A stretch of 64,000 nucleotides of DNA from a virus. The stretch's first letter is position 1; each line of letters opens with the position of its first letter. The stretch covers positions 1 through 64,000 of the IMG/VR virus record IMGVR_UViG_3300032304_000672. The stretch is one strand, 5' to 3'. The position numbers were made by a program, and so were the translations under genes. Shown piece by piece: positions 3,462-24,127 of the stretch. The notes under the pieces were generated by a model that worked only from the letters and a program-made list of their open reading frames with translations, searched no databases and had not been told where the DNA came from.

Positions 3462-3753
3462 TCTAGGTATAGATTCAGAAGATTTAGATTGGTTCCACCT
3501 TGGTATATGTAGAGGAATGGATACCAATTTATTTTATGAAAAGTATGAAGCCGATTCTAATATAGCTAAAAATATAGATGAGATGTGTTTAAGTTGTCCA
3601 GTAATTAGTATGTGCTATGAAACTGGAGCAGAGGGAAACGAGTACGGAGTTTGGGGCGGAGTGTATTTAAGCTCTGGATCAATAGACAAATCGAAGAACT
3701 TGCATAAAACACCAGACACTTGGAAGAGGTTGAAAAAGAAAAATGTTTATTGA
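3442..3753 (+). CDS. whiB: WhiB-family Fe-S transcription regulator
   Basis: Four Cys (C..C-x2-C-x5-C) plus GVWGG turn. Confidence 0.9.
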   Translation: MSEILNDLGIDSEDLDWFHLGICRGMDTNLFYEKYEADSNIAKNIDEMCLSCPVISMCYETGAEGNEYGVWGGVYLSSGSIDKSKNLHKTPDTWKRLKKKNVY

Positions 3754-13125: not shown

Positions 13126-13191
13126 AGTCCGCCTTTCGTCTATAGATTATAGCAGAAGGGACTGACAAGCGCCAGCCCCTCCTGTACACAA

Positions 13192-13338
13192 TTACTTCTT
13201 TGGTGTTGGCTTTTCTGCTTCGAACGTCACGCCTTGGCTAGCTGCGTCCTCCAGAGCTTTGTTTGCTGCTGATGAGAAACGACCACGGGCCCCTACAGTA
13301 ATTCCCTTTGACTTTAAATATTCACGCTTTGTTGCCAT
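13192..13338 (-). CDS. Lsr2 C-terminal DNA-binding-domain-like mini-protein (48 aa)
   Basis: MATKREYLKSKGITVGARGRFSSAANKALEDAA resembles the Lsr2 REWA..G..V..RGR AT-hook motif. Confidence 0.7.
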   Translation of the reverse strand: MATKREYLKSKGITVGARGRFSSAANKALEDAASQGVTFEAEKPTPKK

Positions 13339-13442
13339 TTGATAATCCCCTTTCAAGAGATAGATGTTTTATTTATTATATCGGATACCCACGATTTTGT
13401 AAATACCCCCGTAAGAGCTAAGATCAGCCCCTATGTTCCGCC

Positions 13443-15308
13443 TTAGATATTAAGTTGTAGATCTTCTGATGTATCTTCATCTAAGAATACATCTGTAGCT
13501 TCGATCTCATCATCTGTTGGGATCTCATCCCAATCGGTTGACGGACGAAGGTTCGCAATCTCCGCTGCTTGATATTCGTCGGCAGCGGAAACAATGGTGT
13601 AATAGTTTGTATACTTGGTACCAAAGACTCTATAGATTGGCAAGCATTTCCCTCATTTCCCATTCGGCATATGTACGGACAATAAAGTCCTTATCTAGAT
13701 TATAACAATACAGGACAGCTTTTGTCAAGGAATCCGTCTCATATATTGGCATGTCCATTATGACCTCATTGTCCCCTTTGTCATATACCTCAAAGGTTCT
13801 AATTCCTCCAGGTGAACAATCATATGCAACTTCCAGGATTTCTAAGCTAGGCTCATAATGAGTCATTTGTTCCCTCATCCCCAGACATACGATCTTTGAT
13901 AAGTTTGCTAATGATATTATGTGCTTCGATATTTTCTGTTTCAGACCCACCCCACAAAAGCTTTTGGGCTTTGTTTAATTGATCATTGATATAGATATCA
14001 CTCATCTTCATCTTCTTCCTCCTCTTCGTCTTCTTCAAACATTGTATCCACAATGTACTCACGATTCATCATCCATTCAAGTACGTCATCGTTGTGCTGT
14101 TCCGCCCCGTACTCCAGAGAGAAGCCCTGGCCCGCCTCTACAGCCTCACAGAGGTGGTCCCACATCTCATCTATGGTGCAGTTCTGCTTGTAGGTCTCAT
14201 CCTCAAAGATGTTGTTAATGGTAGACCAAGTCCATAGCCAAACTAAGGATAGACCTAGGTCCGTTGTATCTAGAATCTTTAAACATTCATTTAGTTTATC
14301 TTTATCTTCAGGCTTCATCCCGTGCTCCTTTCGCAAAAGCAATGTCATATGTCAATTTGTACAAATCTCCTAGAGCGTCAAGGTACCCTTCTAGGTGTAA
14401 GCGGTCCACGGTTTGGTCATACTGTTCGTCATCTTGATTTGTATATTCAGATAACTTCTTTTCTGTTTCAACCATTAGGACCTTTAGTTCCCCGTGCATT
14501 ATGTCAGCCCCGTCCATTCCGATGTTTATCATACGTTGCAAATGGGGCGGGAGCCCAATGTCTTCATTATTCATTAATATACCTTTCGTTAGAGTTATTC
14601 ATTATATCAGTAGCCACTGACAATAAATGTTCGGTTGCCATAATTTGTCCCTGGATATTAATCTTAGATTGAACATTGTAATCACCCTCTAAGTCCTGGT
14701 TAAGACTAATTAGATGTAACTTCATATACTCCAGGAAGTATGATGATTTAGTTTGTGTAGTCAAAGTAACCCTCCGCCCACAGACCTTGCAAGAAACTAA
14801 CAGCGTCTTCCAAGTCTTTCCTCAAAGGCTCCTTGTTCATTAAATCGGACGGGGTCCTAAGATAAAAAAGCTTTGAATCGTGTACAGCATTAATCATTCT
14901 ATTTAGATCAGACTCAGTGTAACCTAGCATAGGTCATACTCCATATCCCAAGATACATCAGGCCAATTTAAATCATATCTTGCGCTATCAACTTCACCTA
15001 AATCGTTTAGGTGTAGATTAATTTTCTCGTGTGCTTCTTTCTCATTATTGGCCATTACTGCACCTTCTAATTTAATTACAAATCCATACTTATTCAAAGT
15101 AGTCCTCATCTCCTTCTGTTAGGTTATAGAATTTATTAAATTCAGATTGAATAAACTCATCTCCTGACATTTCAGCAAATTGTTTATCTGCATAATATTG
15201 CCCTTCGTCAAGATTACTATTAATCCAATCTTCAAGTAATTGTTCTGCTATATCTTGGTAGCAAGCGTCAATTACCATTTGATTTACATCTTCTAAGAAA
15301 CTAGCCAT
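13443..15308 (-). CDS. Run of ~9 coupled small, mostly acidic hypothetical genes
   Basis: ORF track: 13443-13643, 13630-~13866, ~13853-14005, 13998-~14320, 14308-14574, 14567-14764, 14748-14930, 14924-~15100, 15090-15308. Confidence 0.7.
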
Positions 15309-16092
15309 TTAGCGCTTCCTCCTGTGTGTAGGTTTTCAAAGGTAATAATACACTATGGGTCTGACATTCTTTCATAGCCACCTCATCCTGCCAAGAGCCT
15401 TCATTACATTCTGAGCAGAATTCACCGCAGTCATCTTCACAATAACTTAATGTATCGTAAGACTGGCAAGCATAGCAACGATTCTCATATTCAACTAATT
15501 CTTTTACTTCACCACGGACAATCTCATATTCCCCACCCCAACCTGTTTCTTCCTCAAACTCTAATGTAAGCAGGCAGTTAGGAACAAGATTACTTAGTTT
15601 AGTTAAGATAGTTACAGCAGGTGACCAAGCCGTCTCATACTTATAGACAACCCAGTTGTCATCACCTTCTGATTTATATTCAAGCAATTCCGTATTTGGA
15701 TATTTATCACCGTCACGGACGGCTACATCCCATTTAGTTCCCCAGTTGGAGTTATTCCACGAATACCAATCCTTCTGTGTCTTAGCAAACTCAACAGATT
15801 TGCGGAACCAATCAGGGTCATTCTGAATATCTATACCACCACGAGAAGGCTGGCAGGCATACTCTTCATCAGTAATACCTTCATCTTTATATGAGTGAAT
15901 ATTGAAGAAAGCAAAGACAGGATTAGAATAACTTACCTGTTCAATTTTGGTGGGGAATCCTGAAAGACTAATATCACCCATACCATAAGTCTCTTGTGCT
16001 AATGTAAATGGACTATTCAGTCTATCCTTGATATAATCAACTTCTGACTTTGGTCCTTGAATTGTTAACGTATTGTAACACCAATTTGGCAT
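15301..16092 (-). CDS. DUF1281/YubB ferredoxin-like protein with C-terminal Cys cluster
   Basis: MPNWC.N, WGTKWD and TAWSP motifs. Confidence 0.8.
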   Translation of the reverse strand: MPNWCYNTLTIQGPKSEVDYIKDRLNSPFTLAQETYGMGDISLSGFPTKIEQVSYSNPVFAFFNIHSYKDEGITDEEYACQPSRGGIDIQNDPDWFRKSVEFAKTQKDWYSWNNSNWGTKWDVAVRDGDKYPNTELLEYKSEGDDNWVVYKYETAWSPAVTILTKLSNLVPNCLLTLEFEEETGWGGEYEIVRGEVKELVEYENRCYACQSYDTLSYCEDDCGEFCSECNEGSWQDEVAMKECQTHSVLLPLKTYTQEEALNG

Positions 16093-16264
16093 TTTATTTC
16101 CTTTCGCTAATAACCCAATTATATACTAGACCACTGACATTTGGAATACCTTTTGGGTGTGTTCCACACCACATTTTCCAAGCTATGTGGTCAAGATCAC
16201 AAAATTTCAGGGGAATTATATTGACTTCCGTAAAAGAGATATGATACCCTCACCTGTTGCGGGC

Positions 16265-16415
16265 AAACAAAAATCCCCCAGGGCAAGCTGGGGGATCAGA
16301 TAAGTAAGGCTGCTAGCAGAACGAAAGGAATTTAGTAAACGCTGCTTTATTTAACGACTTGGGGAAAACCCTAGTAGCCGCACCATACTTTAATGAAAAG
16401 GTCCGCTAGGACCTA
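16265..16415 (-). ncRNA. Candidate sRNA carrying the anti-RBS loop UUCCUUUCGUU
   Basis: Extended -10 TGCTATAAT at 16429-16421; nested stems; terminator ATCCCCCAG/CTGGGGGAT followed by a U-tract; no ORF. Confidence 0.55.
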
Positions 16416-16441
16416 TTCATATTATAGCATATCTTAGTTAA

Positions 16442-16846
16442 CTAAACTGGGACAACAACATCTGCGTACTTCTCAACGAAGTTACTCAGGTCCATAGTAA
16501 AGAGCGCTTCATTGCTCATCCCATTAACCTTGTTATCCAAATCATTCCTTGGCGCCTCTTCGTGAAGACTGAATGTCTGCTGCTGGAAATCGACAATAGC
16601 AATCTTGTGCTCGTTATCGCCAATCTCATTTACGTGCAAGCCCCATCCAGTTTCCATATTCCACTGGTCCGCAATCATATTACTGATTGTGATACGTGTT
16701 GCATATGAAGGGTCATTCCAACGAGGACGTGCTTTAAACACTGCCTCTGCTAGATTCGCTAGCATTTTATGGCCTGCCCAGTGACCGTATAGTACAATTG
16801 TATTTCCGTTAGGTTGGACGAATCCAAAGTTTGCTCTATCTCCCAT
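16442..16846 (-). CDS. Hypothetical protein
   Basis: ORF with RBS. Confidence 0.75.
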   Translation of the reverse strand: MGDRANFGFVQPNGNTIVLYGHWAGHKMLANLAEAVFKARPRWNDPSYATRITISNMIADQWNMETGWGLHVNEIGDNEHKIAIVDFQQQTFSLHEEAPRNDLDNKVNGMSNEALFTMDLSNFVEKYADVVVPV

Positions 16847-17413
16847 TACATTTCCGCCTTTTCTAGTTGAGGTACTTCTTCGGTTTTATTCAATTCTATC
16901 ATTTCAAAGGAGACCTTGTCAAGGGCCTCTTTGTTTTTATTATAGTGGTGGTGGCAAAAGAAAAGCTCACCATCTACTAGTTTAATTAGATACATAGCCT
17001 GAGCTGTACCGCATTGATCACAGCCGATCCATCTAGTTAGATCCTCAGAGGTCATAGTCAACGGTTCCAAATTCAATACGGTCTGCAATGTCATCGTATA
17101 CTTGGCCATCATCCTCAGACTCAGCCCACACACGAATGTTTGCGACAATTACTTCACGAGCAAATTTGACGCCGTCTTCAAAACCATCTTGGTAATCCAT
17201 TTTATCTCCTTGTATATCCTGTCGGTTCGTAGTCTGATGTATAACTCTCTGTGAGATTATACTTATCTCGAATCCGACTTACTTTCTCAATGCTACCAGT
17301 TCCGATGTTGAATGTCAACGGTGATAATGCAGTTGGGTCCAGCCCAATCATCTGAGCATCCCAATAGGCCATCTCCATAGATAGCCTATCGGGAGCAGTC
17401 AACTCAAAATACA

Positions 17414-18049
17414 TTATGCTTCCCTCACATTACAAACTTCTTGGTCACCAATTTCAATGTTACCATTGTTTGATTCAGCAAAGATAGCATCTGTAATTTC
17501 TGACTCAAGGTCTAAGTCATAATCATTTTCAAGAATGTTGTAAGAATATGTTCCGCTAACTTCGATAGATGCGGTCCACTCAACTTCCTTAATTAATTCA
17601 ATTGATAGCGCTTCAGCAATTTCACGCAATGTGTCTTGGTCTTGTGAGTCTGCATATGCCTCGCAGATAATTTCCTTAACTGCATCAATCTTGCCATTTA
17701 GAACGCCGTTAGTCTTCTGTGCTTGACGGGCATTGTGCAGGTCCCATTCAATTGATGTAACCTTATCAGTTGCATATTCTGCATCTGAATATCCACGGAT
17801 AACTTTATAGGTTACCAATAGATTAGGGTTATATGTATCAGGCACCGTTACTGTGTTTGTCTCTTCCATTTTATTTCCTTCCGTTTCTGTTGGTTGTATT
17901 GTAGCATCTTCGACTGACAATAACACTGTACTATTGTTACACGGGCATGTGATATTAGTCACAGGCTGAAATGCATCGGGACATGTAAATTCAATTAAAG
18001 AATCACATGTACTGCACACGTATGTATATTTACTCCAGGTTTGTGTCAT
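17414..18049 (-). CDS. Hypothetical protein with Cys-rich N-extension and internal start at 17869
   Basis: Leaderless start at 18049; internal promoter and RBS before MEETNT. Confidence 0.7.
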   Translation of the reverse strand: MTQTWSKYTYVCSTCDSLIEFTCPDAFQPVTNITCPCNNSTVLLSVEDATIQPTETEGNKMEETNTVTVPDTYNPNLLVTYKVIRGYSDAEYATDKVTSIEWDLHNARQAQKTNGVLNGKIDAVKEIICEAYADSQDQDTLREIAEALSIELIKEVEWTASIEVSGTYSYNILENDYDLDLESEITDAIFAESNNGNIEIGDQEVCNVREA

Positions 18050-18175
18050 GCGAGTATTGTACAGGACCCCACTGACATTTACAATAGAATTCAGGGCTTT
18101 TTTTATGTGATCCGTAACACAGAAATCCTGCCTTCAATGTTGCGGGCGTCTCATATATTGAGAATCAAATCTTAG

Positions 18176-18249
18176 CGATCCATATCGGACTTGAACCGAC
18201 GGCCTCTACCGTGACAGGGTAGCGCTCTAACCAACTGAGCTAATGGACC
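18176..18249 (-). tRNA. tRNA-Asp(GTC)
   Basis: GGTCCATTAGCTCAGTTGG...CTGTCAC...GGTTCAAGTCC cloverleaf. Confidence 0.93.
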
Positions 18250-18290
18250 TAATGGTGAGCAGTTTTAAATCTTGCTCAGGATTTTTTTAT

Positions 18291-19295
18291 TTAGAAAGTT
18301 GCAACCATTCGATACAACTTATTTTTTTCTGCGGTTAGAATTGGGTCAAACCCTGATGCACCCGCCATAAGAGTTTCACCATTGCCACGACCTGAACGAT
18401 AGTAATCAAGGCGCTCAGTTAGTGCATTGAACGCACCCCACTTTGTTCCCTTGATTGTAGCGTTAGTTGGTGAGTTGTGATACAAATCGTCAATGAGAAC
18501 AACTTTGTTTTCCCATTTCTTCAATGAACCCTTCAAATCCTTGTCAGGCTTAGGATAGATTGTCTGAATCAACTTAGAGAATTCAGCATCGGTGATTGCT
18601 TGTGAGTAAAGTGCCTTTGCTTGAACTTCGAATTCATCAAAGTATCCAAGAGCAAGCCCAAGAGTTTCACGAGCAACTTGAATGCGACCTTCAACAGATT
18701 GCGTGTGGCGAATCTTGAAAGATTGCTTAGCATTCTTCATTGCAAGGTTTAGCGTGTTTTGGCATACAACACGAACAGGTGTAACGGCTGCTTGAACAGC
18801 AACAGAACCATCGTGTGAAGTCCAGACAATGAGATAAAGTTTTGTCTCATCGTTGGCGCCTTGTGGGTCAAGAACCATTGTGCGTGGAATGTCCACAGTT
18901 CCGAACACAACTTTGCCCTTCTTTAGTGAGCCAGCAGATTCCCAACGGCAATCAGCATTGGCATCGTGAATTGCATCAGCGAATGCAAACAGTTCTTCAT
19001 TCTGAACTGGCTTGTAACGTTTTCCAACAGTTGCGAGAACATCAGTTCCGCCGTTGAATGGATTGTCACGAATGACAAGAGATGCTTCTGAAACATCATT
19101 CCAAGATTCTGAAATGTGGTCAGTTAGTGGAGACAAGCGAACATTCCAATTTGCTAACTTTGCTTCTTCAAGCATTGTTGCAGTTGTAACTTCCTCATCT
19201 TTTGTGAAGATACGATTTGCAAGGTTGTGCCAAGCAGGTGCGCCACGAAGAGCAAATGCAACTTCGCCGTTTTCGACTTCGAGATTGTGAGCCAT
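18291..19295 (-). CDS. DUF932/DUF945 family (TIGR03299-like phage/plasmid protein)
   Basis: MAHN...AWH, Y.PVQN, SHDGS, RVVCQNTL and RHT motifs. Confidence 0.9.
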   Translation of the reverse strand: MAHNLEVENGEVAFALRGAPAWHNLANRIFTKDEEVTTATMLEEAKLANWNVRLSPLTDHISESWNDVSEASLVIRDNPFNGGTDVLATVGKRYKPVQNEELFAFADAIHDANADCRWESAGSLKKGKVVFGTVDIPRTMVLDPQGANDETKLYLIVWTSHDGSVAVQAAVTPVRVVCQNTLNLAMKNAKQSFKIRHTQSVEGRIQVARETLGLALGYFDEFEVQAKALYSQAITDAEFSKLIQTIYPKPDKDLKGSLKKWENKVVLIDDLYHNSPTNATIKGTKWGAFNALTERLDYYRSGRGNGETLMAGASGFDPILTAEKNKLYRMVATF

Positions 19296-19505
19296 TTATT
19301 TCCTTTCGATTAGTTGTTGATTGCAATTATAACAGGTGGCACTGACATTGTCTAGATTAGTTAGTCATTTGTCCGAATTGTCTGGGGTGATCATTATCAC
19401 AAATTTTTGGGGGTTTTCCACAGGTAGTCGTAAGGCTGTGGATAACCCCGCAGCTCTGCGGGCAGCTGGGGAAATAGGGCGGGAATAAGATCCCGCCCTA
19501 AGTCT

Positions 19506-19745
19506 TTAGATTAGTTTAGTTAATTCAGTTTTCTTAGGAAGAACGTCCATTGGTAAAAACAAAGCAGTTGTTTTCTTTTTCTTTATGTTGTCATAAACAA
19601 ACGCTTTAATGTTTCCTTGAAATCTGCGTAGATTAGAAAATACCATTTCAGTTAAGTATTCTTTATCTACACCTTGCTCAGAGTAAAGAGTTAAATCGTT
19701 AGCCTTTACTTCATCATAGATTTCAATTCTATAACGATTTTTCAT
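19506..19745 (-). CDS. Hypothetical protein
   Basis: ORF with RBS; downstream hairpin at 19476-19500. Confidence 0.7.
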   Translation of the reverse strand: MKNRYRIEIYDEVKANDLTLYSEQGVDKEYLTEMVFSNLRRFQGNIKAFVYDNIKKKKTTALFLPMDVLPKKTELTKLI

Positions 19746-19890
19746 TTTGTTCCTTTGTTAGTAGGGATACGAATTATAGCATTGGGACGTATAGTTTGTC
19801 TAGCCCCGTAGGGTTGAGCAGTTTTGCGACTTACTCAGGTCGTTTGGGTTTAGGTGTCTAGACTTTGTGTGCTAACCCCCCAAAACCTAT

Positions 19891-20307
19891 TTAGAGATAC
19901 TTAGCAATCTGCTTCATTGTAGAAGCATTTACTGTTTCCTCATCTGTCATTTTGAGAATTGTTAGGGCATTTGTAATGTCCTCTTTCATCTCACGATAAC
20001 TGTGCTGATGGATTTGCTCAAAATCCTTTTCAGGTTCAGCAGGGAAGTTGCCTTCCTTTGTGATAATGTCAAAATCAACATTGAGAGTGTTGTTCCATTG
20101 ACGATAGTTTGTGCGAAGGTTCTCAGCCTTTGAGAAGTTAGCAATAGCCCACTTACCAATTTCCTTTTTCCACGCTTCTACTGCTTTCTGAAACTTTGCT
20201 TCTTTTTCTGATTGTGAAGCATAGTCTTTCTCTAGTGTTGCTAGACGAGTTTCTAGTGCCTTGATTACTTTGGTAGTTGCTACCTTTACTGTGATTTGTC
20301 TTGACAT
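19891..20307 (-). CDS. Hypothetical protein (start revised to MSRQ)
   Basis: RBS and promoter lie inside the track's longer ORF. Confidence 0.75.
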   Translation of the reverse strand: MSRQITVKVATTKVIKALETRLATLEKDYASQSEKEAKFQKAVEAWKKEIGKWAIANFSKAENLRTNYRQWNNTLNVDFDIITKEGNFPAEPEKDFEQIHQHSYREMKEDITNALTILKMTDEETVNASTMKQIAKYL

Positions 20308-20439
20308 TTTTTCCCTTTCGTTTAGTTTGTTTGGTTGTATTGTATCAGGTGCTACTGACATTTCCACCCGAAGGTGGAGAGTTCTTACTTACGACATTGG
20401 ACTAGAACACTCTCTAAACTGTCCCTGTTTCGATTTTAT

Positions 20440-20595
20440 TTAGTTGTTAGGTGCGCTAGTCCAGCGTTCCTTGCCATTTACATCAAGCAGGATACGATTT
20501 GTTCCGCTAGGGTGATTATCAACCGCCTTGATAACTCCTGTGATACCGCTTGTTGTTGTTGTGTAGGTCTGACCTACTTCTAGTGTTGTTGTCAT
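20440..20595 (-). CDS. Small beta-rich hypothetical protein (start revised to MTTT)
   Basis: GAAAGGAA RBS and promoter upstream. Confidence 0.7.
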   Translation of the reverse strand: MTTTLEVGQTYTTTTSGITGVIKAVDNHPSGTNRILLDVNGKERWTSAPNN

Positions 20596-20710
20596 TTTGT
20601 TTCCTTTCGCTAGGGTTGTTATTATACAGGGTGGGTCTGACATTTTCCACCCCAATCTTATTATTTGAGATGATAAGCGTGTGAGTAATCTCACACGCCT
20701 ATCTTGATCC

Positions 20711-21204
20711 CTAGTCCTCGTATTGAGGGAGCCACGCTTCTAGGTGGTGAGCATCTACTATTGCAGACGCAGGGCAGGAAGTCTGACCTCGCCAAGTGAT
20801 ACCTTCAGGAAGATTAATCTCTCGACTATACTCCTCATCATAGAACGCATCAATAGCGTCTATGCAAGGTTGCACCATTGAGACGGGAACGGGTGGGTAA
20901 TGATTACCTTGTAAGTGATAGGCAAGTCCTGCCTCTAGTCCTAATTCTTCTTCTAGTGCTAACGCTGTTGTGTATCCCATTAGATAGTTTCCTTTACTGT
21001 TAATTCTGCCCAAGTGTTATTTTCATTTGCTACTGTTAGTGTGTTAGACATAGCAAGAGCGTTAATTGTTGCATCCTTACACATTTGCTGAATTGCAGTT
21101 TCATCAAGAGCAATTAGCGCAGGCAATAAGTTTGCAGGGATTTTATCCAAGTCAATAATTGCCTCGAATACTACTGTGTGTGGAACTTTCATTAGGTTAG
21201 ACAT
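20711..21204 (-). CDS. Two coupled hypothetical genes (20980-21204 and 20711-20980)
   Basis: TAATG overlap. Confidence 0.7.
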
Positions 21205-21495
21205 TTGTTACCTTTCGTTGTTGGAATAATGGTATTTTACACTAAGCCACTGACATTACCTAATCCATTATGGGCGTGTCGCAGCTTTTGTGAGATTAAT
21301 CACAAAATTTCAGGGTTATCCACAACTAGTCCGTAAGCCTGTGGATAAACCCGCAGTATTGCGGGCCCTTTACTCTTCTTCGGACCAGATATCAGGATCC
21401 TTTTCTTTTAAATATTCTAGTGCAGCTTTTCTCTGATCATCAGTTCCCATTACCGTGGCCATTAATGCATTGAAGTATTCCATTTTTATTTCTCC

Positions 21496-22215
21496 TTATT
21501 TTTTAGTTGCGCTAAATCGAATGTCTGCTTTACCGTAAACACATAATCCACAAGATACACAAGCAGAACCAGCATTGCTAATTAGTGGAATTGATTTCAT
21601 ATTCTCAGGACACTTAGCGCCAGGCTTGCCCGTCAATTCTTTCATTGTGCTTTCGGTTACGGCGAATGTCTTCCCTAAGTATGCAAGGCGAATACCTTCA
21701 TTTGCTTTTAGTTCGTGACCGATTTCTTTATTATCATCGTCGGTAGAATAGTAAAGAGATAGGTTAGATACATCCTTAAGAATAAGCGCTGCAGACTTTA
21801 CACGTGTGTAAACCCAGAATTGAACATCGGTGTGCTCATTGATTACATTCTTCCAGGCATAAGTATAGAAATCATTAAAGAAATCCCCGTCCCAGTGGAT
21901 ACGGAATAACTTAGGAGCGTCTTTCTTATCACAATCAGATTTAAATTCAATAATCATTTCATTTAGCAATTGATACATTGTTTCCATATCAGCATTGCGT
22001 AGCAATTCCCAATTGTGTAGAAGATTAGTTTTTACTCCCTTGAAGAGTTTTTCCAATTTTCCTGCGTAGCAAACACTCTCACAAATACTAGTGGCACCAG
22101 GGCACGAGTAATCCTTTCCAGCGGGGAGACCGAACGTGTTAGCAATTGCGGCTTGCTTTCCATTTTTTGTGACAAGGTTAGCCACCTTTCTATCATTAGA
22201 ACGTTTTAGTTTCAT
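21496..22215 (-). CDS. Gp88-like Cys-rich (Fe-S/radical-SAM-like) protein
   Basis: CPGA...C...CYA, RIHWDGDF, YTR and C..C.LC motifs; leaderless start MKLK. Confidence 0.75.
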   Translation of the reverse strand: MKLKRSNDRKVANLVTKNGKQAAIANTFGLPAGKDYSCPGATSICESVCYAGKLEKLFKGVKTNLLHNWELLRNADMETMYQLLNEMIIEFKSDCDKKDAPKLFRIHWDGDFFNDFYTYAWKNVINEHTDVQFWVYTRVKSAALILKDVSNLSLYYSTDDDNKEIGHELKANEGIRLAYLGKTFAVTESTMKELTGKPGAKCPENMKSIPLISNAGSACVSCGLCVYGKADIRFSATKK

Positions 22216-22246
22216 AGGCGTAATTATAGCGGTTAGGTCCGACATA

Positions 22247-23873
22247 TTAGTAATCTTCATCCATACCAAAACCAGCGGAAGCAAGAGCATCGGAATCAGC
22301 CCAGCCAGTTAATTCATAGAATTCCATTTCTTCAGCATCATAGCATTCAGCGCAGATATAGTCATCACCATAGATTTCATATTCTTCAATTGAATCGAAA
22401 GTTTCTTGAGCACCACAAATTTCATAGTTCAAGCAAGCGACAGTAAATAGTTCCATTATGGACCTCTTTCGTTAGTAGATAGTGGAATTATAGCAGACTA
22501 GACTGACATTTTTTGCAACTCGCTCAAAATTCTAGGGTGTTTTAGATCACACCCGTAACGACACGCCCGACTCCGCAGCTCTGCGGGCATCCCGCTTGTT
22601 TGTCAAGCGGGGCACACCATTTATTTAACGCTAACCTTTTTCTTTTTTATTAGCGCTTTAATTTGTCTTTCTGTTACTCGTGTTCGTTCTGTTGAATACT
22701 TATAAATTGTTCCCGCCTTCTTTGCTTCCTTTACATAGATGCGGTCAAACTCTGCACGATGCTTTTTAATTAACTGCTTTACTGCTTCGTTTCTAATTGC
22801 TGTTGCTGGTGGTGTCATTTTTATTCCCTTTCGTTTTTGTTTTTGTGTTTTGTTTTGCGTGTGTATTTCTTTTTATTCCTAACAGGTTGCGCCGCATTAC
22901 TGCGACGCAATTCCTGAATGCGTTTTACCTTATCAAGAACGGAACTGCGGAACATTATACCCACTCGCTTCGTGAAATCGTTTTACATCAAATCGCTCAT
23001 TATCTTTTGCGAACATCTCCGCAAAATCATTTACCATTTTAGAAAATACAGCAGGGTGAGTTTTATTGCTGACATACTTTAGAATTTCTGCCGTTGCGAT
23101 GTAATCTTTTCTAGTCATCATTTTACTGCCACCATTCCGCTACGATAGAAAACTTTTGTATAGCATTTGCCTGCTGGCGTGTAGAGATTAACTGTAGAGT
23201 ATTCGTTAGCCATTCCCCAGTCGGTGAATAAGAAAAAGTTTTCCCACGCACCAAATTCGCTTTCGTATTCTGCTGACCAATGCGGAGCATTTGAGTCATA
23301 GGCGCAAGTTAGTTTATACATTATCCATTTACCCAATCTACTGTTAATTCATCTGCTACATCTGCGATACAATCGCAAGGCTCGCAATCATAATTATTTT
23401 CATTTCCCCAAAATACAAATCCTGCGCCACCGCATTCATCACAATTCGCTGCGATTATTTCTATGTATTCTTTCATTTTAGCCATTTAGGTTTTCCCTTT
23501 CGTTTGTTTGTTTAGTTATTGTATCAGGTAGCACTGACAAATTAGATAGCGCCCTCTTGAAATAATCCAATTTCAAGAGTTAGCATTTCATCGGGTGTTG
23601 CTTCGGATAAATCTACCCAGCCAGCACCCTCGTTGTCCATTCGGAAAATTTCGATGTATCCCATTATTATTCACCAACCTTTACTGCGATTGTTGCGAAT
23701 TTATTTCGCAGACCGCCAGCACGAACCTCGATTAGATAGGCTTCAGTTTTTTCGCCATACCAAATTTCTGGGCGGTGTTCCGCTGAAACGATTTCGCCAG
23801 AAAAATGGCGATTTCGTGAGCGATAGTTTTTCCCTACAAGTAGGCTTTCGATTGTGTATAGTTTGGTAGCCAT
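22247..23873 (-). CDS. Series of small hypothetical genes
   Basis: 22247-22456, 22621-22818, 22933-23121, 23118-~23320, 23667-23873 and short intervening ORFs, with RBS. Confidence 0.65.
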
Positions 23874-24127
23874 TGGCAGACCTTCTTTCGTTTGTTGTTA
23901 TGTATGGAATTATACACGAACGGACTGACATTTTCACATTACTAGCCAGTAAATCCAAATAGTGAGACGCTCAAGCCGTGTGATACTAATCACATAAAAA
24001 TGTCCGATTTGTCTGTCAAATCGACACGCCGTAGAATTCAGGGAATTTTATAACAAATCCGTAACGACACGCCCGACCCCGTGCCTTTGCGGGCCAGCTT
24101 GAGTTTGTCAAGCCGACACGCCGTTAG

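Follow-up and report, generated by a model that had tools for sequence, protein, structure and literature searches.

Does a short, ORF-less stretch in the early region of a phage genome encode a small RNA, and is a loop of that RNA addressed to the ribosome-binding sites shared by the early genes? The locus was analyzed within a window of 64,000 nt (the whole stretch of DNA under study, to which all coordinates without a locus name refer), taken from the start of an IMG/VR virus record that measures 103,695 bp and has direct terminal repeats. The GC content of the window is 38.9%. The host is most likely a low-GC freshwater actinobacterium, because the window encodes a WhiB-family ORF (3490-3663, plus strand; 43.5 bits) and GP88, DUF932, and DUF7455 family proteins, and because the best protein relatives are found in Streptomyces and Mycobacterium phages. 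The candidate RNA gene is placed within the early region, on the early (minus) strand, between two protein-coding neighbors (Table 1).

The RNA gene, its relatives, and its predicted fold

On the minus strand, no ORF of at least 30 aa was found between 16441 and 16093. A sequence-only reading of the same DNA had described this ORF-less stretch together with TGCTATAAT and a GC hairpin with a U-tract, and all three are present. The TATAAT of the extended -10 box is nearly invariant, and in 71 of the 84 distinct homologues TG stands ahead of it. Upstream there is no TGTCRG box such as the early promoters have, so the earlier assignment to a different promoter class was fair. The stem sequence of the terminator varies between relatives with its pairing kept. 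A conserved promoter of its own and a Rho-independent terminator around a short region lacking ORFs are features of the small-RNA class. The RNA can be regarded as a separate gene, because it has a conserved -10 box and a covarying terminator and because an additional early promoter lies ahead of the next gene; the comparison of homologues supports an independent, conserved, structured small-RNA gene of approximately 150 nt at 16429-16265 (minus strand). A small peptide was rejected as the product, since P3 varies by insertions and deletions and short frames are not preserved. The segment from the terminator to the next early promoter (16140-16264, minus strand) is also conserved in relatives, with a GCCCGCAA..TGAGGGTA..CAT block followed by TTTACG and GTCAA.

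Neighbor-protein searches and two DNA-pattern scans of IMG/VR yielded more than 200 related loci, which are contigs of uncultured phages; the longest, near-complete ones measure approximately 104-118 kb, and the matching runs among their samples were mostly labeled freshwater. In structure-free MAFFT alignments of these loci, the -10 box was conserved and the core highly so, and both the 5′ hairpin and the terminator covaried. A covariance model built from 62 distinct sequences (R1) gave a single match in its own 103.7-kb genome (16298-16433, 136.9 bits) and matched all 89 of the 89 related loci searched, nearly always approximately 200-350 nt upstream of the DUF1281_C gene. Of more than 150 related IMG/VR contigs, nearly all carry a copy of the RNA at the corresponding position. 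In the clade of the complete genome G002, a homologue of the scaffold lies approximately 1.4 kb downstream of the DUF1281_C gene, not upstream of it (L101:5217-5327, corresponding to G002:12616-12726, minus strand). Its P4 hairpin is of 4 bp, and a tRNA gene occupies the region upstream of the DUF1281_C gene (L101, about 2750-2826).

Searches for known RNAs were negative at this locus. At gathering thresholds, Rfam returned four tRNAs only for the whole window, and in E-value mode the RNA locus gave only sub-threshold matches to MicX, NsiR1, and mir-247. ARAGORN found neither a tRNA nor a tmRNA at the RNA site, and four tRNAs elsewhere in the window. Among deposited phages (INPHARED), megablast of the locus and tblastn of the downstream protein gave nothing useful, and the RNA itself had no blastn match among 50,697 deposited phages. 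A pattern scan of bacterial and archaeal genomes returned eight matches, of which six were chance matches in coding DNA. The other two were short phage-like contigs that carry the RNA and had been binned into MAGs (L228 and L233). The Polynucleobacter label of L228, a 3.2-kb contig, is probably due to mis-binning, because the phage carries WhiB and actinophage-type genes. The RNA, which matches no Rfam family and no deposited phage, thus appears to represent a new family.

The predicted fold is a 5′ hairpin (P0) and a three-way junction (P1/P2-P3/P4), followed by the terminator. RNAalifold showed two helices, the closing stem being one of them, in which compensatory changes are numerous. In the alignment of 84 distinct sequences, which was fitted to the covariance model and so favors structure somewhat, standard pairs were formed in 92.9% of cells, compared with 74.5% in shuffles; 19 of 27 pairs showed changes on both sides, and the covariation score was 0.447, compared with 0.141 in shuffles and at most 0.118 for slid partners. 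The same helices are visible in the structure-free MAFFT alignment. Covariation in related phages, one of the checks proposed by the sequence-only reading, was therefore found, and it revised the fold that had been proposed there. That fold was a pair of nested stems. The outer one (GGCTACTAG/CTAGCAGCC) did not survive, because covariation in the 84 homologues supports the pairings of P1 and P2 instead and hence a three-way junction; the inner one (GCAG/CUGC) roughly corresponds to P4.

Changes on both sides were observed in five of the eight P1 pairs, with up to 49 such cells in one pair. P2 was paired in 99.6% of cells, and four of its six pairs change on both sides (GC/CG/AU; GU/UG/CG). The innermost pair of P4 occurred as GC (24), CG (23), UA (17), and AU (7), and mutual information revealed an additional P4 pair (A:U, 55; G:C, 17). 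Within the RNA, conservation is highest at the junction nucleotides. Positions 16354 and 16350 change together (C..G in 58 and U..A in 22 of 84), and 16354 is also in the last P2 pair; this covariation suggests a local tertiary contact, which may be a base triple or a UAA mini-loop. A pairing of J2/4 with UUUACU of the loop may form a pseudoknot or an alternative hairpin: the two segments are complementary in many type-1 members, but the complementarity is missing in many members and is not compensated where J2/4 changes. In single-sequence folding, the core was no better than shuffles (z = -0.5), and the whole RNA was modestly better than they were (z = -2.7). The case for structure thus rests on covariation.

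Table 1. Features of the RNA gene, its neighbors, and the putative target leaders in the window
Feature	Position	Strand	Basis or remark
Extended -10 box TGnTATAAT, TGCTATAAT	16429-16421	-	sequence; transcript start predicted near 16414
P0, 5′ hairpin AGGTCC/GGACCT, 6 bp, 4-nt loop, then short U-run	16414-16399	-	6/6 pairs change on both sides among homologues
Core, about 90 nt	between P0 and terminator	-	
P1 closing stem, 5′ strand AGUAUGGU	16389-16382	-	RNAalifold and pair counts
P1 closing stem, 3′ strand GCCUUACU	16310-16303	-	RNAalifold and pair counts
P2, GCGGCU (16381-16376) with AGUCGU (16359-16354)	16381-16354	-	encloses internal loop and P3
P3, short variable hairpin	16371-16369 with 16363-16361	-	covaries in 2/3 pairs
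J2/4 junction strand, 8 nt, UAARUAAA	16353-16346	-	nearly invariant in alignments A1 and A2
P4 hairpin	stem 16345-16341 with 16317-16312; 23-nt apical loop 16340-16318	-	stem 99.4% paired
Anti-leader element in P4 loop, UUCCUUUCGUU	16330-16320	-	complement of AACGAAAG in early leaders
Intrinsic terminator: GC-rich 10-bp stem, 6-nt loop, U-tract	16297-16265	-	
Upstream neighbor, 134-aa ORF	16846-16442	-	
Downstream neighbor, 263-aa DUF1281_C/Api92-like ORF	16092-15301	-	
Putative target leader, 138-aa ORF	13130..13140	-	
Possible target leader, 106-aa ORF	14325..14335	-	
Putative target leader, 88-aa ORF	14580..14590	-	
Putative target leader, 263-aa DUF1281_C/Api92-like gene	16098..16108	-	gene directly downstream of the RNA
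Putative target leader, DUF932 gene, 334 aa	19300..19310	-	
Putative target leader, 138-aa ORF	20312..20322	-	
Putative target leader, 51-aa ORF	20601..20611	-	
Putative target leader, 74-aa ORF	21209..21219	-	
Weaker target leader, 69-aa ORF	22463..22473	-	CGAAAGAGG
Putative target leader, 65-aa ORF	22825..22835	-	
Putative target leader, 54-aa ORF	23494..23504	-	
Weaker target leader, 68-aa ORF	23882..23892	-	CGAAAGAAGG

The P4 loop and the leaders of the early genes

The element in the P4 loop that the sequence-only reading had singled out is present, and its core CUUUCGUU (16327-16320) is invariant in nearly all members of the family (more than 95%), while the P4 stem varies freely. Twelve early genes of the minus strand (13.1-23.9 kb) carry the AACGAAAGG leader, which includes all eight sites listed in that reading and four more. 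Their CGAAAG-type leaders lie 9-17 nt before the start codons (minus strand, 13138 to 23890), and (A)ACGAAAGG ends 5-8 nt ahead of the start codon in the 12 genes. No late plus-strand gene in the window has the leader motif. CGAAAGGRA occurs seven times, compared with 0.68 times expected; CG precedes AAAGGR in 7 of 48 cases on the minus strand and in 2 of 78 on the plus strand, one of these two being the antisense of the RNA itself. The plus-strand copy is, as had been claimed, not followed by a start codon. The family thus combines a conserved, predicted single-stranded seed with complementary leaders at the ribosome-binding site, which is a further feature of the small-RNA class.

Most of the motif leaders follow TGTCRG-N10-TAnnnT promoters. 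The distance between the -10 box and the motif is variable, whereas that between the motif and the start codon is fixed, so the motif belongs to the translation-initiation region and not to the promoter. Between 13100 and 25900 of the window (minus strand), 16 starts were observed behind TGTC[AG][GC]-N9-11-TAnnnT promoters. Two of the 16 are leaderless, with ATG 3-4 nt past the predicted transcript start (near 22215 and 18049).

When the 14 early leaders that are not leaderless were paired with the loop, the real loop gave a mean of -11.7 kcal/mol, compared with -6.9 ± 1.2 kcal/mol for 500 shuffled loops, none of which paired as well (0 of 500). The longest Watson-Crick run with the leaders averaged 7.9 nt for the real loop and 5.2 nt for shuffled ones. 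The predicted pairing that the sequence-only reading had suggested checking was recovered in this computation. Part of this complementarity is trivial, since any CU-rich loop pairs with a Shine-Dalgarno element. When duplexes were scanned across the whole genome, the early leaders reached -14 to -16 kcal/mol and were not at the top, with sites in coding regions reaching -21 kcal/mol. GAAAGG fits the usual anti-Shine-Dalgarno tail of actinobacterial 16S rRNA, whereas the preceding AAC, and especially its C, does not. The AAC of the leader is exactly complementary to GUU of the loop. Taken together, the comparison with shuffled loops supports a predicted complementarity between the loop and the shared early leader well beyond chance.

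Relatives differ in the flanks of the loop core, which is preceded by UUC, UUA, or UUU and followed by GG or by other nucleotides. Among unique leaders, which are not phylogenetically independent, GAA after CGAAAG was found in 125 of 239 leaders of phages with a UUC loop, compared with 48 of 305 where the loop has A or U. Likewise, C at -3 was found in 143 of 338 unique leaders where the loop continues with GG, compared with 37 of 201 otherwise, and within UUC loops these counts were 21 of 39 with GG and 37 of 201 otherwise (the same dependence applies). In a 2 × 2 energy test, type-2 leaders favored the type-2 loop by approximately 2.9 kcal/mol, and type-1 leaders slightly favored the type-1 loop; in the cross test, the leaders of each set formed the stronger pairing with the loop of their own type (interaction, about -3 kcal/mol). 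The correlation does not reflect one split between clades, because the loop types are spread over the adjacent gene's tree, where well-supported branches force at least three to six changes. The leader of the DUF1281_C gene, for which physical linkage to the RNA has to be borne in mind, varies together with the loop's 3′ flank, and up to 12 contiguous pairs can be formed in type-2 phages.

The same association was observed at the level of the motif. CGAAAG is present in 529 of the 762 leaders of phages with the loop motif, compared with none of 16 promoter-defined leaders of the clade lacking it. In the complete genome of that clade (G002, with a short P4 hairpin), 1 of 11 leaders has CGAAAG. 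Leaders of the clade read AAAGAAAG, and at least one other G002 leader reads CCGAAAGG. Together with the flank counts, these figures, in which the leaders are likewise not phylogenetically independent, support the view that loop and leaders have changed together across the relatives.

Two relatives appear to depart from this pattern in the position of the element. L139 and its 99%-complete genome (G001) keep many AACGAAAGG leaders and have a P4 without the motif; the P3 loop of L139 reads ACCCUUUCGG, a version of CCCUUUCGG. L089 also has a P4 loop without the motif, and UUCCCUUUCGUUG forms the loop sequence of a separate, very stable hairpin at a distance of 1.6 kb. The anti-leader sequence in P3 of L139 and L089 looks as if it had been moved to another arm. 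Both RNAs (L139:2700-2790 and L089:2700-2790, plus strand) are divergent homologues with a short P4, and the P3 loop of L089 reads ACCUUUCA. The free-standing UUCCCUUUCGUUG hairpin (L089:5345-5400, plus strand) is followed by two -10-like boxes and is the sole case among approximately 300 loci.

Other readings of the RNA

The scaffold itself may carry the main function. Under this explanation, which we consider unlikely, a structured RNA would do its work through the three-way junction, for example as a binding partner or sponge for a small ligand or for a protein of the phage or host, and the loop would be secondary or clade-specific, perhaps a general anti-Shine-Dalgarno mimic. The strong conservation of the junction nucleotides and the covarying non-helical junction pair, a hint of tertiary structure, are in line with it. 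The scaffold is also conserved where P4 has no anti-leader loop (the G002 clade, L158, and L259, all with short, unrelated P4 loops), and the record of L259 has no clustered sites complementary to its differing P4 loop. Because of this persistence, the scaffold may have a function apart from the seed, such as stability, seed presentation, or protein binding. The invariant loop core of more than 95% of the members and the joint change of loop flanks and leaders speak against a subordinate loop. In addition, a protein that reads the leader motif would need the same sequence in the RNA, not its complement, and no partner protein gene is consistently adjacent to the RNA among the relatives except the DUF1281_C gene.

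About equally improbable is a base-pairing small RNA that is aimed mainly at host mRNAs in host takeover, with the match to the phage leaders as a by-product or minor feedback. The seed, being similar to an anti-Shine-Dalgarno sequence, would match ribosome-binding sites in many actinobacterial mRNAs, and several known phage small RNAs act on host transcripts (PMC12197685). The leader-specific AAC extension points instead to phage targets, as do the co-variation of the flanks with the phage leaders and the loss of CG in the clade without the loop.

Still less probable is an element acting in cis, either as the 3′ UTR or terminator of the upstream gene or as a 5′ leader or riboswitch-like attenuator of the DUF1281_C gene. 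The 5′ hairpin with its U-run resembles a weak terminator for the upstream ORF, and the sequence-only reading had itself cautioned that this hairpin might simply terminate the upstream gene. It may also do so, yet it covaries in 6 of 6 pairs and is retained whichever gene lies upstream. The RNA does lie nearly always just upstream of the DUF1281_C gene, but this gene has its own early promoter approximately 140 nt past the RNA terminator. Moreover, the near-consensus extended -10 box directly upstream of the RNA is conserved, and the element is kept even where the upstream gene differs. A riboswitch or attenuator was rejected, as the 3′ part of the core is invariant, the terminator stems differ completely, and the downstream promoter is separate; no antiterminator alternative exists, because the invariant part cannot pair with such highly variable stems.

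One metatranscriptome contig, which spans the upstream genes into the core, is also in line with a cis element. It stems from a set of 16 sequencing runs that contain parts of the stretch. Four of these are metatranscriptome runs, available as assembled contigs with no usable ends or strand, in which relatives at 85-97% identity over the RNA and the upstream gene were found. The contigs show no coverage of 16210-16291. Several stop at 16306-16309, where the conserved core gives way to the variable 3′ part, and these ends are therefore best read as assembly breaks. In a relative, a 152× metatranscriptome contig ends in an Illumina adapter right after GCAGC of the core (window 16308-16319), which could be a frequent fragment end, a processing site, or an artefact.

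A chance, non-functional intergenic sequence, with which the unremarkable single-sequence folding energy of the core would agree, has a negligible probability and is refuted by the strong covariation and the positional conservation in more than 150 contigs.

Proposed mechanism and comparison with known systems

The reading we favor, with a probability of roughly 55%, is that the phage encodes a trans-acting small RNA of approximately 150 nt that pairs with the shared early leader and likely represses the early class. The RNA would be transcribed independently, as a discrete transcript, from its own extended -10 promoter, and the 5′ hairpin would stabilize it. The three-way-junction scaffold would present an unpaired loop, in which CUUUCGUU and its variable flanks could pair with the AACGAAAGG(AA) leader that is common to approximately 12 early genes here and to approximately 70% of such leaders across the family. 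A pairing of 9-12 bp would cover the Shine-Dalgarno element and block ribosome binding as the RNA accumulates. Early proteins would then be dampened or shut off, and the late genes, which are without the motif, would be spared. Repression would be the natural outcome, because the duplex covers the Shine-Dalgarno element. The sequences show the gene, its fold, the complementarity, and the co-variation, whereas the discrete RNA, its pairing in vivo, repression rather than activation, the timing, and the early-to-late switch that the sequence-only reading had put forward are inferred; the position of the gene inside the early region, on the early strand, does not readily account for a delay. Actinobacteria lack Hfq, and a seed displayed in a hairpin loop fits such a probable host.

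A broader version is more tentative, and we put it at somewhat below even odds. One RNA would be the master translational off-switch or governor of approximately 12-16 separately transcribed early genes that share an 8-11-nt "address" fused to the Shine-Dalgarno element. A modular three-way-junction chassis would carry an exchangeable seed loop, seed and address would have co-evolved across a large family of freshwater actinobacterial phages, and the motif could be moved to another loop or hairpin. Phage temporal programs are known to be run by proteins, namely, sigma factors, anti-sigma factors, the nuclease RegB, and the repressor RegA, and known phage antisense RNAs act on single genes. In literature searches, no phage small RNA was found that acts on an entire class of early genes by way of a common leader. 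If the proposal is true, an RNA with this property would be a new design for early shut-off, and a rare case of RNA-based regulation both in Hfq-less Actinobacteria and in abundant, mostly uncultured freshwater phages. The family offers a natural series of seed and leader variants, which makes the idea directly testable with reporters, and the compact chassis, whose seed can be exchanged, could find use in actinobacteria as a programmable repressor of translation.

Several known RNAs share features with the one proposed here. The mycobacteriophages L5, D29, and StarStuff make small, stable, highly expressed early non-coding transcripts (PMC5712189); blastn found no similarity between them and the RNA. 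Membership in the MicX family of Vibrio cholerae (RF01808) was rejected. In a 261-nt search, the score was 25.3 bits (E = 7e-4), whereas 75 are required for gathering. Both RNAs have a 5′ hairpin, a UUCCUU-CG loop, and a terminator in the weak alignment over the full length, but MicX belongs to a different phylum and context. The RNA is not considered a member, because the match consists mostly of generic small-RNA features and scores below gathering.

Similar in style is actinobacterial 6C/B11, a trans-acting small RNA that directs pyrimidine-rich hairpin-loop seeds against purine-rich mRNA sites. B11 is the subject of PMC10470900. Unlike the phage RNA, 6C is a host RNA with two C-rich loops, and although it is represented in Rfam, neither a sequence nor a model match was found.

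A mechanistic likeness is seen to the c4 RNA of P1 and P7 and the sar RNA of P22, which display in a loop an antisense sequence against the ribosome-binding site of a phage mRNA and block its translation (PMC12197685), a pairing that is predicted for the RNA here. The c4 RNA, which arises by processing of a longer transcript, acts on one operon (icd-ant) in the immunity of temperate phages that infect Proteobacteria, whereas the RNA described here would act on approximately 12 separate early transcription units via a shared leader, in a large terminal-repeat phage with a probable actinobacterial host. The Rfam C4 model gave no match to it at the gathering threshold or in E-value mode.

In purpose, the functional analogues are found in T4, where the RegB endoribonuclease and the RegA repressor inactivate many early mRNAs at the Shine-Dalgarno or initiation region and so bring about early shut-off. 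Both are reviewed in PMC3014915. The T4 effectors are proteins, whereas the effector proposed here is an RNA that would read an "address" in the leader.
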